A stretch of 64,000 bases of DNA from Octopus sinensis (GCF_006345805.1 NC_043003.1:33604001-33668000); one strand, 5' to 3'; positions 25,358-54,300 are shown, counted from the stretch's first letter. Numbers and translations: made by a program. The notes: generated by a model not told the origin, from the letters alone.

Positions 25358-25606
25358 GTGAAGTATATTTGTCACCTAAATGTGGCTAACCACTAAGGAG
25401 GGGAATGCTACTGTAGTTTGTAGCCCCAGGAGAACATCTTCTCCAGGTGGCTAATGACGCACTTTCTTTTGGCACAATTTCTTTTTGCCCTAAGGCACAG
25501 AAAGTGTGTCAATAGCCAGCTGGAGAAGCTGTTCTTCTGGGGCTACAAGCTACAGTACCATCCACCCTTAATGGTTAGCCACATTTAGGTGGCAAATATA
25601 CTTCAC
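25358..25606. repeat. Fold-back element, ~110-bp imperfect inverted arms with ~30-bp spacer
   Basis: gtgaagtatatttgtcacctaaatgtggctaacc...gacgcactttct versus agaaagtgtgtc...ggttagccacatttaggtggcaaatatacttcac. Confidence 0.85.
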
Positions 25607-25635
25607 ACACACATAAATATATATATATATATATA

Positions 25636-26097
25636 TATATTATATTAAATTAGAGATAAAACCACTATTAGGCAAATCATACAATGAAAAACTTAAGCCA
25701 ATACATAAGATTAATTAATTTATATTATTTTAAATATATATCAAAATTATTAAAAAAAGATAATTAGTATAACACTACGATCGTTTCATTGATTAAACCT
25801 CGCCAAATATTTCAATCACCTGAAGAATGACTGTAACTCGAATTTTTACGAATTGGACAGCCATGAAACGATCGTAGTGTTATACTAATTATCTTTTTTT
25901 AATAATTTTGATATATATTTAAAATAATATAAATTAATTAATCTTATGTATTGGCTTAAGTTTTTCATTGTATGATTTGCCTAATAGTGGTTTTATCTCT
26001 AATTTAATATAATATAATATTTTACTATAAAATTGGATTTAATCCTAAATCTGATTTTTCCCTGTAAGTTTGGATTTATTCCCTAATATTTTATTAT
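25636..26097 (+). mobile_element. Asymmetric fold-back element: 154-bp perfect inverted arms (25636-25789 / 25863-26016), 73-bp spacer, unpaired tail; PLE-like terminus
   Basis: Arms are exact reverse complements by eye. Inserted in (TA)n; spacer plus right arm contain an HHR. Confidence 0.8.
25817..25879 (+). ncRNA. Minimal type I hammerhead ribozyme motif
   Basis: cac-CTGAAGA-atgactgt..acagccat-GAAAC-gatc-GTA-gtg. Core is intact, stem II is 7/8 bp, stem III is the palindrome acgatcgt, triplet GUA, stem I only ~3 bp. Confidence 0.7.
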
Positions 26098-26304
26098 ATA
26101 TATATATATATATGTATGTGTGTGTGTGTGTGTGTGTGTGTGTGTGTGTGTGTGTGTGTGTGTGTGTGTATATACAGGGAGGGTAGAAAGAAATTAGGCA
26201 TTAGAAACTGCTTATAGAATGTTTAGTATCACTGAAGTCATGACAAAAATATTTTTTAAACAGGCAACACTAACGGGGATTTCTTATTTTCTTATTGTCT
26301 TATG

Positions 26305-26475
26305 ATTTTCCACCCTCAATCGCTTGATAGGCGATGTTGGTGTGTTTACGGGGACGTAAACACACCGATAGAATAAGGACTAGGCTTACAAATAAAAATC
26401 CTGGGATCAATGTTTTCGACTGAAGGTGGTGCTCCAGTATGGTCGCAGTGAAATGACTAAGACAAGCAAAAAGAA
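26305..26475 (+). mobile_element. 3' half of SINE family B with an internal micro-inversion
   Basis: cgcttga..gatgttggtgtgtttacg...accgatagaataag..ggtgctccagtatggtcgcagtgaaatgact. Confidence 0.75.
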
Positions 26476-50659: not shown

Positions 50660-51323
50660 CAGGGTCGCAATCACCGAGCGGCTGATCAGTACAGCGTGGC
50701 CAATCATTTAGAACCGAGTGGTACAGAAACAATAAATTTCTATTGTACAACTTATCGCTTGAGAGAAAGAGAAAAACGGTGGCAGATAGATATATAAATA
50801 CATACATATTATGTTATATAGCAATATAGTAGTAGTAGTAGTAGTAGTAGTAGTGGCAGCAGCAGTAGTAGTAGTAGTGTTAAGAGGAGGGAGAGGAAGA
50901 GTTACGTATCTCTTGCTTCAAGAATGGAGATTATTCTGTTTTTTTACTCTAGACACAAGACCCGAAATTTTTGGAGAGTGGGGCCAGTCGATTATATTAA
51001 CCCCAGTACGCAACTGGTACTTAATTTATCGACCCCCGAAAAGATGAAAGGCAAAGTTGACCTCGGTGGAATTTGAACTCAGAACGTAAAGACAGACGAA
51101 ATAACTCTAAGCATTTCGTGTGGCGTTCTAACGATTCTGCCAGCTCGCCGCCTTAAGAATGGGGATTATTACAAGAGGTATGAAGAAGAAAGTCGAGTGT
51201 ATTAAATGGTTCTGTGAAGAGACGTTCACTATCGTGTTTTGTGATGCGCGTGATCCACAAGTCCGTCGAAAATTTGTCCTGCACAAAACCGGTACGCGGT
51301 GCGAAAAAGATTGAAGACTATTG
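50660..51323 (+). mobile_element. Possible old hAT-Charlie (MER1-like) MITE interrupted by microsatellite and a SINE
   Basis: 5' cagggtcgcaatcaccgagcggctgatcagtac.. and 3' gtccgtcgaaaatttgtcctgcacaaaaccggtacgcggtgcgaaaaagattgaagactattg resemble MER1-type ends as I recall them; no TSD recovered. Confidence 0.4.
50936..51154 (-). mobile_element. SINE family A (old tail variant), full length
   Basis: Ends in ctgccagctcgccgcctt; 16-bp TSD aagaatggagattatt (50920-50935) / aagaatggggattatt (51155-51170). Confidence 0.9.
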
Positions 51324-52394
51324 GTATGTAGGATTTAGTTCGTGATATAACATGACTAAAGGGAAAATAGCATGGTTGGTGTAATTCTACAATATGTCTG
51401 CAGGATGAAGGCTAACCGGAAGCGACATATCAACAGCACTTCATTAGACAGCAACCTTCATTAGATTTTGTACTTTACCAGTCAGCTCTAAACAAGCTTT
51501 TATTTCTCTTTGTCATAGTAAACATGACTTGTTTAGTGTGTTTTTCTTAAACTATTTCAATATAAACAAACTTAACAACATTCCAGATCAAACGATGACA
51601 GAAATATTTTTAAAGCATTTACTTCATATGTAATAATTAATTATATAGCAAATTGTAATGGAAAATATGTTTTTTTTACGTCGTCACACATTTAAATATT
51701 CGAATATGTCAGAAAGTATTCGAATATGTCAGAAATTTGTGAAGAGTATATTCGAATATTAATTAAAGCTGACTGAAAACTACTCTTCGACTACACTGCT
51801 GTGTGTATCAATCAAATCTTCTCAAGACAGTAAAGCTACTGAATTTTACTATCGCTCGTGATTTTTCTGCCGATCATACATAACATAAACTGCATACACG
51901 AGCCAACGAGAATATCATTGCGTTGTGGTTGGACCTGTGAGATATAGAAGGGGAAAGACAGAGTGGAAAATGTAGTCGCTGATTTACAAACACATAGATG
52001 TTCAAGGCTGCTTGAAACACTGTTGTTATCATTGATAACGATAGCAACATGCAGCAAAGAAGTTAACAACAATTATATCAGCAAAAAAAAAAAAAATAAT
52101 AATAATAATTTTAAATGTTCCCAACCACTTCGTGACAAAATAGTTTAATTGGAACTATTGACGATTTTCTGCGTTATGAGATACGTTCACTAGGTAGAAA
52201 CTTGCTAGACAAAACTAGACAGTATACTTCCTATACTCTCAGACAGGGCTGGCCTTAGGAGGTGCAGGGCCCCATTGGGAATAATTTTGTTGGGCCCCAG
52301 GTTCTCAGTCAGCTTGCACCAAGTCTATAGAATCATAAAAATACAAAAATGTCTATTATGCCGTACCACGACAAACCAGACGAGTGCCAGACAT

Positions 52395-52482
52395 AGCCCC
52401 TGGCTTGTTGGCACTTGTCAAACCGTCCAACCCATGCCAGCATGGTAAACGGACGTTAAATGATGGTGATGATGATGATGAT
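52395..52482 (+). mobile_element. 3' tail of a retroposon with (GAT)n tail
   Basis: tgtcaaaccgtccaacccatgccagcatggtaaacggacgttaaatgatggtgatgat forms a nested hairpin (cgtcc, ccatg/catgg, ggacg) before the simple-repeat tail. Confidence 0.6.
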
Positions 52483-54007
52483 ATGCATATATATATTCAT
52501 ACAAGTATTATGTTTGTGTGTGTGTGTGTGTGTGTGTGTGTGGTAACTTTCGGAAACATGGATAATTTAAAAAAAAAATTTTTTACATATACGTCTCAGA
52601 TGGTCTAGATAACGATTATATGGGAATTTGTTGTGTAAAGCATATTTCTCTCTTTTTCATATGAACTCAAAGGTAGTCAGTCCCCAACGTGGCTGTTTAT
52701 TATGCTAGAAATGGCAGTTATTAGGTATAAAAAACAGTCACCATTCTGATCTAATACACCGCAAAGGGGAAAAATGTCCTTTGCAGTATACAAAGAGCCG
52801 AGATTAGTTGATAGCACACGAAAGAAAAAATAAGGAAAAAAAATAACACCGCGGTGAGTGGGGATTTCGAGGGCCCACCCCGCCTCCAATTTCGGTAGAA
52901 ATAAGTCATTTACGGTAAATTTAGGAGATGAGATTCATTGATAGCACAAGAAAAAGAAAAAAAGAGGAAGAAATATTATTTCTCACCGAAAAGTTGGCTA
53001 TTAAATTATAAATCTAAACTACATCTAAAGTAAGTCTTTTAAAAAATATTCTGGCAAAAATTGGAAAGAAACTTAACAAAATCCCAAAGAAACTTTTATT
53101 TGTTGCATGTTGTTACGCTAAAAAAGATATACATAGAATGCAAATTAATAATAATTATTTATTAGAATTTTTCGGAAGCTGGTTATATACTTACTGATTC
53201 TGTTTTTTTTTCTTTCTATAAGCTCTGTTGTAAGACAAAGTCCTATCTGTGCAGCACGAACTTTGTTTCTTAGTTATATGTTTCTGGATTAAGCAACAGT
53301 GTGTGACACCAAATGTCTCCTGTGTGCTTGTGTGTGTATGGTTGTGCTTGTCCAAATCTTGAATAGGCGCCATTGCAATAGAGATTTTCTCTTTTGTACA
53401 AGAGACAAAACTTTTTATCTCACCTCCCCCAGCTTTCTCTCTTCCACTATACATACACACATATACACGCACACGCTTATGTGTATGTATACAAAATAAA
53501 AATACATATACATACGATCATAAACATATATACAAAATCCTCAACCAAACCACTATCCGAAATAATTGAACTTTTAACCTTTAACCATTGTAGCCAAAAT
53601 ACTGAGAACTGAATTCTATTACACATACACAGTCATTAGCCTTTTGCTTTTGTCATAAAACTTTTTTTTCCTTTCTTTAATACATGCCTATATACATGCA
53701 TGCATACATATATACATATACATATATATATATATATATATATATAATATATATATATATATTATATATATATATATATATATATATATATATATAATAT
53801 ATATATATATATTATATACAGAATACACTTTATTGGAATAAAAATTTTCTCCCTAAATTAAACATATACAAACACACACACACACACGCACACACACACA
53901 TACACAGATACAGACACAGACACACACACACACACACACACGTACACACACACACACACACACATACACACATATATATATATATATATATATATATATA
54001 TATACTA

Positions 54008-54300
54008 TTGTGTCTGGGGAGAGTCATTTTCTTATTGTGCCTTATTATTTAACACACTCACTCCTTTCTTACTTTTATTTTACTAAAATGTTCGTTATGT
54101 CTTGCAACCTTTTCTTGAAAAGGTTGCCAGACGAAACGAATATTTTAGGAAAATAAAAATAAGAAATAAGCGGAAATTTTAACGGTGAGTATGTTAAATT
54201 ATAAGGCACAATCAGAAAATGACTCTCTCCAGACACAACAGAATATGCTTTAACGCACGAACTCACAAAAAGAATCTTGCAAACCAAATCCCAAAACAAT
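54008..54300. repeat. Asymmetric fold-back element: imperfect palindrome 54008-54238 (loop tt at 54115-54116) plus unpaired tail, in (TA)n
   Basis: ttgtgtctggggagagtcattttc..gcaaccttttc-tt-gaaaaggttgc..gaaaatgactctctccagacacaa. Confidence 0.85.

Follow-up and report, generated by a model that had tools for sequence, protein, structure and literature searches.

Introduction

Penelope-like elements (PLEs) leave a characteristic layout at their insertion sites: the parts of Craig et al. (2021, PMC8557442) drawn on here describe pseudo-long terminal repeats, an adjacent inverted and 5'-truncated copy, a tail of 30-40 bp on one side only and a bias towards microsatellites. According to the sections used of Cervera and de la Pena (2014, PMC4209133), PLE terminal repeats contain minimal hammerhead ribozymes, in which helix II is long, helix I short and helix III tiny or absent, and which often have an additional base following position 9. 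Animal non-long-terminal-repeat (non-LTR) retrozymes are hammerhead repeats that were proposed, in the passages considered of two further reports, to derive from PLEs and to depend on them (Cervera and de la Pena 2020, PMC7229834; Li et al. 2026, bioRxiv 10.64898/2026.07.22.740005). The purified Anolis PLE named PAc cleaves and extends both strands, and two internal reverse transcription start sites bound its tail (Frangieh et al. 2024, PMC11167929). How PLE insertion is completed, how the inverted copies and the one-sided tail arise, and whether hammerheads cut in vivo are treated as open questions in the parts used of PMC8557442 and PMC11167929. Here we analysed a stretch of 64,000 nucleotides (nt) from Octopus sinensis (GCF_006345805.1 NC_043003.1:33604001-33668000; G000:C7:33604001-33668000 in our numbering), called the window below, from an assembly of 2.72 Gb in 13,516 contigs. 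Six places in it carry fold-backs or copy ends in or next to hammerhead-like or GAAA-type motifs, and a sequence-only reading had proposed that the ribozyme fold or its cleavage marks where reverse transcription stalls, snaps back or re-primes, as a mechanism common to all these palindromes.

The six places are copies of six abundant non-coding repeat families (A, B, C, D, F and P1), five of which are present in the window as head-to-head double copies adjoining TA or CA microsatellites. With moderate confidence, we explain the palindromes as head-to-head double insertions of short non-coding retroelements into TA/CA microsatellites, likely via PLE enzymes that prime on both target ends. The ribozyme is not the common cause of the fold-backs, which do exist but are for the most part ordinary; their architecture, the type of ribozyme and a proposed dependence of such repeats on PLEs have been published, as the parts considered of PMC8557442, PMC4209133, PMC7229834 and bioRxiv 10.64898/2026.07.22.740005 attest. 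In the searches made and the passages considered, nothing came up on how 5' ends or points of inversion lie with respect to the hammerhead.

The PLE-type layout, that is an inverted, 5'-truncated head-to-head copy with a tail at one end only, is observed here. As in the endonuclease-bearing PLEs of PMC8557442, so far as its parts used here describe them, the copies combine 5' truncation, partial tandems, a head-to-head inverted copy, a tail at one end and a microsatellite bias. Unlike those PLEs, the window families are short and non-coding (~160-490 nt), their tails measure ~45-100 nt (A, F, D and B), and an autonomous partner was not found in the loci searched. They resemble the non-LTR retrozymes, as the passages considered portray them, in being non-coding, hammerhead-carrying and partly tandem (D and A), and differ from them in that the copies are mostly dispersed single or head-to-head stubs and not long tandem arrays; inverted copies and breakpoints do not figure in those passages.

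Results

Repeat families and genome samples

The window is AT-rich (GC content 0.23-0.42 per 2 kb) with dense TA and CA microsatellites. First-look searches returned 1,324 candidates genome-wide for family B, 3,968 for C, 1,690 for D, 2,402 for F, 2,279 for A and 1,274 for P1, and 40 candidates were scored per family search. Family B is young: its 333-nt unit occurs in copies 94-99% identical to the window copy, and a 21-mer from it has 1,396 exact matches in the genome. Family C is composite and consists of a ~70-nt head, an (AAT)n run and a ~150-nt module with the hammerhead-like motif. The D unit measures ~490 nt, frequently with more than one unit in partial tandem; family A likewise forms partial tandems. 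Unlike D and A, families B, C and F (the last with a unit of ~200 nt) are mostly single or head to head.

In order to avoid selection by 5' structure, a single exact word from the 3' portion of the unit served to anchor the genome samples; these comprise the first 100 listed matches per word and come from the first contigs only. Positions in the B unit, the D reference and the A reference are given as u, q and a, respectively. For B, the 21-mer u187-207 was used; its 100 listed matches fall into 74 regions, which were mapped to the window's own copy. For D, the 20-mer q215-234 has 207 matches, and from the 100 listed we took all 12 head-to-head pairs and the first 28 singles, leaving aside eight same-strand tandem pairs and the later singles. 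The C sample holds 29 of the 38 other matches of a 20-mer, an exact word being preferred because a fold-back query biases the sample. For A, the 110 nt at the 3' end were used as the query and supplied 29 loci; three duplicate views and the reference copy were dropped. BLAST ends may shift by a few bases at overlaps.

The two arms of a pair carry different 3' ends

In the genome samples the 5' ends of head-to-head pairs face each other, and in B, D and A each family has two alternative fixed 3' ends, one short and one long. Among 40 head-to-head pairs of B, 35 combined one end near u232 with one at u300 or beyond, none was short plus short or long plus long, and five were of other kinds. The same pairing was found in 13 of 18 pairs of D (short q316-319, long q398-412; one pair was long plus long) and in all nine pairs of A (short a712-719, long a749-770). 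Single B rows ended near u232, the short site, in 38 of 48 cases (hand count). Since the singles are mostly short-ended, independent choice cannot give the short-plus-long pairing, which suggests that the two arms of a pair were not started independently.

The outer flanks of B pairs consisted of at least 80% TA steps in 35 of 75 cases. Where the two arms of a B pair lie close together (36 pairs), 12 junctions overlap by 1-5 nt, four are blunt and 20 carry filler. Near-symmetric turns were in excess: inner ends lay at most 20 nt apart in 14 of 30 B pairs, as against 7.3 under shuffling (p = 0.005).

5' ends accumulate just after the predicted cut

The 107 B arms spanning the anchor began at u1-35 (36 arms), u36-62 (8), u63-92 (14), u93-122 (27), u123-152 (7) and u153-187 (15). 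The sharpest peak is the unit's own 5' end, with ~16 copies starting at u1 (hand curation). The commonest internal start is u93, the first base (+1) after the predicted cut, with five of the 107 arms; all five begin GTG(T/A)TAT irrespective of the upstream sequence. Among 54 D arms, 17 reach q4, mostly continuing into the previous unit, and the remaining starts fall at q5-109 (9), q110-139 (2), q140-169 (4), q170-199 (18) and q200-215 (4). Three of the 54, starting at q170, q170 and q171, lie at +1 or +2.

We compared the 5' ends of arms and single copies in the interval +1 to +30 with both neighbouring bins. In B and D, the density of ends over this interval exceeds that in the neighbouring bins by a factor of about two to three: 27 ends against 21 in the flanking 60 nt in B (p = 9e-4) and 18 against 8 in the flanking 46 nt in D (p = 0.002). 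Pooled with A, the interval holds 51 ends in 90 nt and the flanks 37 in 172 nt (p = 5e-6). Fold-back arms taken alone gave 17 of 54 in B, where the interval makes up 16% of positions (p = 0.004), and 14 of 26 in D, where it makes up 14% (p = 2e-6). Breakpoints are thus distributed non-uniformly in these samples, as the sequence-only reading had expected.

The conserved boxes showed no such excess. Fold-back ends within 7 nt of a conserved box numbered 9 of 54 in B (21% of positions) and 3 of 26 in D (19%), and those inside the ribozyme span 18 of 54 in B (40% of positions) and 8 of 26 in D (53%), neither being an enrichment. What is enriched is the interval directly following the predicted cut and not the boxes. 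B pairs turn in every part of the unit. In family C, 17 of 29 loci have a head-to-head partner, and in 13 of these 17 the turn is located past the module, within the head or the (AAT)n run; turns inside the module were seen only at L096, L110 (duplicate L111), L117 and in the window. Inspection of the pair sequences showed that arm-length variation in C is mostly (AAT)n length. Of the proposal of a common palindrome mechanism, what stands is that 5' ends are locally in excess past the predicted cut; turn points show no concentration at the boxes or in the span, and fold-backs also occur in family F.

Hammerhead-like motifs of families A to D

Read by eye, families A to D appear to carry minimal type-I hammerhead-like motifs that match the published descriptor in outline, with a long helix II, a helix I of 3-6 bp and a palindrome around 15.2-16.2/loop 3. 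In B, helix I and CUGAAGA (25820-25826) are followed by helix II (25827-25864), GAAAC (25865-25869) and the palindromic ACGAUCGU, and the predicted cut lies at 25876|25877 after GUA; the order is AAUCAC, CUGAAGA, a helix II of 8 bp with one mismatch, GAAAC, ACGAUCGU and GUA, then GUGUU. Common core types among 76 copies vary only at N7 (A or U), and helix II of this young family shows one compensatory copy as against several single breaks. A type-III reading of B, with helix III formed from the two arms, was dropped; it needs four unpaired bases at helix I and is available only in fold-backs at u79.

The window copy of C is degenerate in helices I and II when set against the commonest letters of 68-72 copies, which read CUGAUGA-A-GGCUGG...UCAGCC-GAAAC-GUU, then GUGUU, able to pair with GACAC before the core. 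CUGAUGA, GAAAC and GUU are each present at 90% or more among those copies, helix II has 5-6 bp, and the predicted cut is at 41364|41365. RNAalifold returned no monomer structure for 68 distinct C rows. The D core, on the minus strand, reads CCGAUGA, then GAAAC, the palindrome ACAAUGCAUUGU and GUC, with a helix II of ~73 nt closed by GACG/CGUC and a predicted cut at q169|170 (window 43392|43391). The helix I pair q70/q173 is T-A in 15/14 copies and C-G in 19/19, and the loop-3 pair q159/q166 is A-T in 29 copies and T-A in five. Longer copies of A read CUGA(C/U)GA-C-GGGU..ACCC-A-GAAAC-CCGGGUC with the cleavage triplet GUC, and CGUGCG after the motif pairs with a GUGCG stretch before the core. 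In these longer copies the motif sits ~55-65 nt further 5'; the window copy is without it.

These motifs share with the minimal PLE hammerheads, as the sections used of PMC4209133 define them, the CUGANGA and GAAA boxes, the long helix II, the short helix I and the absent or tiny helix III, as well as a palindromic 15.2-16.2/loop 3 (ACGAUCGU in B, ACGU in C, ACAAUGCAUUGU in D and ACCCGGGU in A) and, in C and A, the extra base after position 9. They depart from that description in the position 4 and the ~73-nt helix II of D, in the A-U at 10.1-11.1 and the lack of an extra base in B, and in an extra A before G12 in A; none matches an Rfam model. At the gathering score, the Rfam hammerhead models had no match in the whole window, and at E <= 10 no hammerhead was among the 150 of 216 matches listed for 24000-56000. 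The matches listed were low-scoring and microRNA-like, on microsatellites and hairpins.

Turn points of the window

Inverted repeats or copy ends are present at all six places. The arms of A (25358-25467 and 25499-25606) are identical at 98 of 108 aligned bases with 31 nt between them, and those of B (25636-25789 and 25863-26016) are 100% complementary over 154 nt with 73 nt between. In C, 82 of 97 ungapped positions agree (41163-41259 and 41330-41426); in D, 167 of 171 (43557-43730 against 43242-43415); in F, 102 of 114 (54000-54113 and 54118-54246), with 4 nt between. The right arm of B starts at at-GAAAC, 25863, and that of C at 41330, the second base of CTGATGA (41329-41335), both as the sequence-only reading had them. 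The inverted D arm of that reading is real and begins 7 nt before GAAAC, at 43557 instead of 43554. An arm of A does start at 25499, where aGAAAgtgtGTC is not the hammerhead-like motif of the family. The F turn is next to a GAAAC, 16 nt into the right arm; this GAAAC is private to the window copy, since 0 of 14 printed copies have it at that place (they show GCAAC or other variants), and no CUGANGA box was found in those 14. The minus-strand P1 copy begins near its candidate motif, at 46107 (46108 in the sequence-only reading), 23 nt before its GAAAC. The idea that the neighbouring motif is a ribozyme in every case is unsupported in F and A.

Relative to the predicted cuts, the window turns at -14 in B (u79), -35 in C (41330), -27 in D (q143) and about +55 to +65 in A, and the F turn lies ~15 nt from the 5' end of its unit. 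No turn point of the window falls in the +1 to +30 zone, and the turns share no structural position: B turns just before helix II, D a few bases into helix II, and C past helix II in the 5' core strand. Between 40% (B) and 53% (D) of the positions at which a truncated arm can end belong to the ribozyme span, so that three window turns out of three inside it are unsurprising.

The B junction is a 5-nt overlap, in which the unit start TTCAT coincides with an arm end at an internal ATGAA overlapping GAAAC. This fits a full-length complementary DNA (cDNA) end, the complement of TTCAT, annealed to the internal ATGAA, the overlap with GAAAC being a matter of chance. The same u79|u1 junction occurs at C8:55251700-55252129 (L032), 99% identical to window 25613-26106 and with other flanks; either one fold-back was copied or the microhomology junction arose more than once. 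In L183, the arm ends as in the window B copy, with a TGAG filler.

Discussion

To account for the double insertions, we suggest that the two ends of a cut target would prime on one RNA at two successive start sites, the first target end using the short site, which is preferred, and the second target end the site left free downstream. If the two ends of the broken target each primed on the same RNA, at two fixed sites, the strict pairing of a short with a long end would be explained. Each cDNA would run until the template ends or the enzyme stalls, and one cDNA would then switch onto the other by microhomology, so that the turn point would record where copying ended, stalled or switched; where both cDNAs stop at the same RNA end, a symmetric turn would result. 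Some templates may be cut, or tightly folded, at the hammerhead, and cDNA ends would accumulate in the 30 nt after the predicted cut, while others would end at the RNA's own 5' terminus, at T-runs or elsewhere. Ribozyme cleavage or fold probably sets some of the cDNA ends, as one influence beside the RNA 5' end, T-runs and microhomology. In LINE-1 twin priming, both sides of the target break also prime on the element RNA and junctions show microhomology, but the inversion concerns different parts of one copy; here, unlike that, both arms hold the same 3' part.

PAc offers a biochemical parallel in its two-strand cleavage and extension, its two start sites bounding the tail and its AT-rich target. 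It differs in that both strands used the same start sites (PMC11167929), whereas the genomic copies pair short with long almost always. Mobilisation of these families by PLE enzymes is likely. Matches to the GIY-YIG domain had 5,029 candidates in the genome; of the 150 scored, 147 lay above the Pfam cut-off, with open frames of up to 883 amino acids. The matches to B, C, D, A and F at 30 GIY-YIG loci are incidental insertions.

That the hammerhead fold or its cleavage is the common cause, with reverse transcriptase stalling there and snapping back or re-priming, we consider unlikely. The three window fold-backs that turn inside the hammerhead-like span, the clustering of ends immediately past the predicted cut and the surplus of near-symmetric turns in B would all agree with it. 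Fold-backs are nevertheless common in F, in which no CUGANGA box was found (an inverted partner in 7 of 14 printed loci, hand count), most C pairs turn outside the module, and the boxes and the span as such are unenriched in ends. Snap-back further predicts equal outer ends, yet 35 of 40 B pairs are unequal and none is equal; plain snap-back of a single cDNA is unlikely because equal outer ends would be expected of it. A different account of the palindromic shape, and of the C fold-back form that several loci share at 79-83% identity, would be fold-back DNA transposons of the miniature inverted-repeat transposable element (MITE) type, the arms being terminal inverted repeats. This is very improbable: inner ends differ between loci within each of A, B, C and D, where terminal inverted repeats would be fixed, one arm exceeds the other at its outer end by a fixed tail, and partial tandems and grades of 5' truncation are present. 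About half of the anchored B copies are single arms, and this together with the variable inner ends indicates that the repeats are not MITEs.

The local excess of ends could also be unrelated to the ribozyme, if joining is favoured by T-runs located ~20 nt past the cut, by short palindromes (ACGATCGT for example) and by AT-rich sequence that anneals to the TA-repeat target. T6-T7 runs followed by AAT do lie ~18-27 nt after the predicted cut, at u110-116 in B (25894-25900) and at q191-196 in D (43370-43365, minus strand), and they are hot, with ~12 ends at u110-116 (hand count) and q192 used four times; many junctions have overlaps of 1-5 nt, the TTCAT of the window among them. The excess persists outside the T-runs, however, with ~15 ends in 19 nt in B and 11 in 20 nt in D (hand count), an equally AT-rich B bin (u123-152) has only seven ends, and the commonest internal B start is exactly +1. 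We hold this account of the excess to be doubtful. It is possible, and we advance it tentatively, that the copies preserve an in vivo footprint of working minimal hammerheads, a sizeable fraction of the templates being cleaved at the ribozyme prior to copying or in its course so that cDNAs stop at +1 or shortly past it, together with both arms of every fold-back primed on one RNA at two fixed sites.

Several results weigh against double insertion with a contribution of the ribozyme. In family A (31 arms), +1 to +30 held six ends and the flanking 66 nt eight (p = 0.25, not significant). Of the 12 inner ends within the C module, which include 41319 (2), 41330-41333 (3) and 41370-41379 (4), only four come after the predicted cut. 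The D excess is confounded with closeness to the 3' end and is partly expected of any 3'-biased truncation, although the bin nearer the 3' end is sparser than +1 to +30. In B and D, 5' ends and fold-back junctions concentrate at the T-run that lies within the +1 to +30 zone. Self-cleavage in families A to D is a prediction from the motif; in D, position 4 is C and not U in every one of 34 copies, and Rfam at E <= 10 gave no hammerhead in 41100-43800 or 25300-26200 (all 16 rows each). For PAc, hammerhead mutants left insertion unchanged and no RNA-seq reads ended at the cut (PMC11167929), unlike the excess of ends after the predicted cut in the genomic copies here. The step in which one RNA serves two primers is something we infer, and 30 GIY-YIG loci out of the 5,029 candidates yielded no autonomous PLE whose 3' end is shared by B, C, D, A or F.

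Young, abundant short families such as B record thousands of independent insertions at base resolution. The short-plus-long pairing and the excess of 5' ends after the predicted cut could become a quantitative test of insertion models without bench work, and, if true, the footprint and the priming of one RNA at two sites would give a testable model for the inverted ends and the one-sided tail of PLEs. For annotation, such palindromes should be recorded neither as MITEs nor as microRNA precursors.

Features of the window and further observations

The features are collected in Table 1. The outer flank of the A copy matches the long 3' end of the family, ...gtgcagctactg...cgttcagag (reference a720-767), and 39 of 39 other full-length family A rows start at query base 22-27. 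The forward B unit has a one-sided tail of ~100 nt (26021-26117). In 18 of 19 other loci, the P1 copy extends upstream of the start of the window copy.

Table 1. Repeat copies and motifs in the window (positions counted from its first base)
Feature	Position	Strand	Remarks
Family A inverted arm, long 3' end	25321-25467	-	tail ~25321-25357; pairs with 25499-25606
Family A forward arm, short 3' end	25499-25606	+	5'-truncated ~55-65 nt 3' of the family's predicted cut; without ribozyme
Family B inverted arm, u232 to u79, short 3' end	25636-25789	-	abuts (TA)n; outer end equivalent to 26020
Family B full-length forward unit, u1-u333	25785-26117	+	forward copies run 25785-8 to ~26117; overlaps inverted arm by TTCAT
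Family B hammerhead-like motif	25810-25884	+	read by eye
Family C inverted arm	41163-41259	-	5'-truncated at second base of CTGATGA
Family C forward copy	41264-41426	+	truncated in (AAT)n remnant; minimal hammerhead-like motif ~41320-41372
Family D, two partial-tandem units, period ~485-490	42700-43556	-	hammerhead-like motif of second unit 43384-43495
Family D inverted 5'-truncated arm, q143-q319	43557-43730	+	short 3' end at (TA)n; genome row 33647554-33647730, 94%
Family P1 single 5'-truncated copy	45990-46107	-	between (GA)n and (TA)n
Family F inverted arm	54000-54113	-	pairs with 54118-54246
Family F forward arm to 54246 with ~50-nt one-sided tail	54118-54297	+	40 rows cover query 1-2 to 179-184

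In a longer B subfamily (L121, L142, L162, L167, L169, L172, L187; L345-L349), u23 is preceded by ~470 nt of a different sequence, and the joint, ...tattttag|ATATTT, is reminiscent of a splice acceptor; the extra ~470 nt upstream of five long B copies held no shared open frame and no autonomous partner. BLAST starts at u21-23 were considered as a second sharp 5' end of B and rejected, as they reflect a 3-nt indel variant and this longer subfamily. Likewise, starts of D at q4 are not true ends and mark the edge of the linear reference inside tandem units. Family C was also considered as a tRNA-derived short interspersed nuclear element, its head having box-like motifs that look tRNA-like by eye; ARAGORN found 0 tRNA genes in four C loci, there was no Rfam tRNA match at E <= 1, and this assignment was not retained.

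Three D copies (L195, L196 and L228) start at q171-181, shortly past the predicted cut; upstream of them lies the A/T-rich segment q473-493 of a second D unit with matching orientation. The arrangement has the appearance of an insertion into the AT-rich region of the element itself, or of a template jump to that region, and may be a route by which partial tandems grow. P1 copies lie 0.5-1.3 kb from GIY-YIG matches in four of 30 loci (L265, L271, L283 and L287), three of them upstream on the same strand, and P1 may be part of the terminal repeat of an endonuclease-first PLE. The window contains 100 N, and a simple pattern scan found further CTGANGA ... GAAAC matches at 22069-22091 (+), 33204-33233 (-) and 42294-42332 (-).

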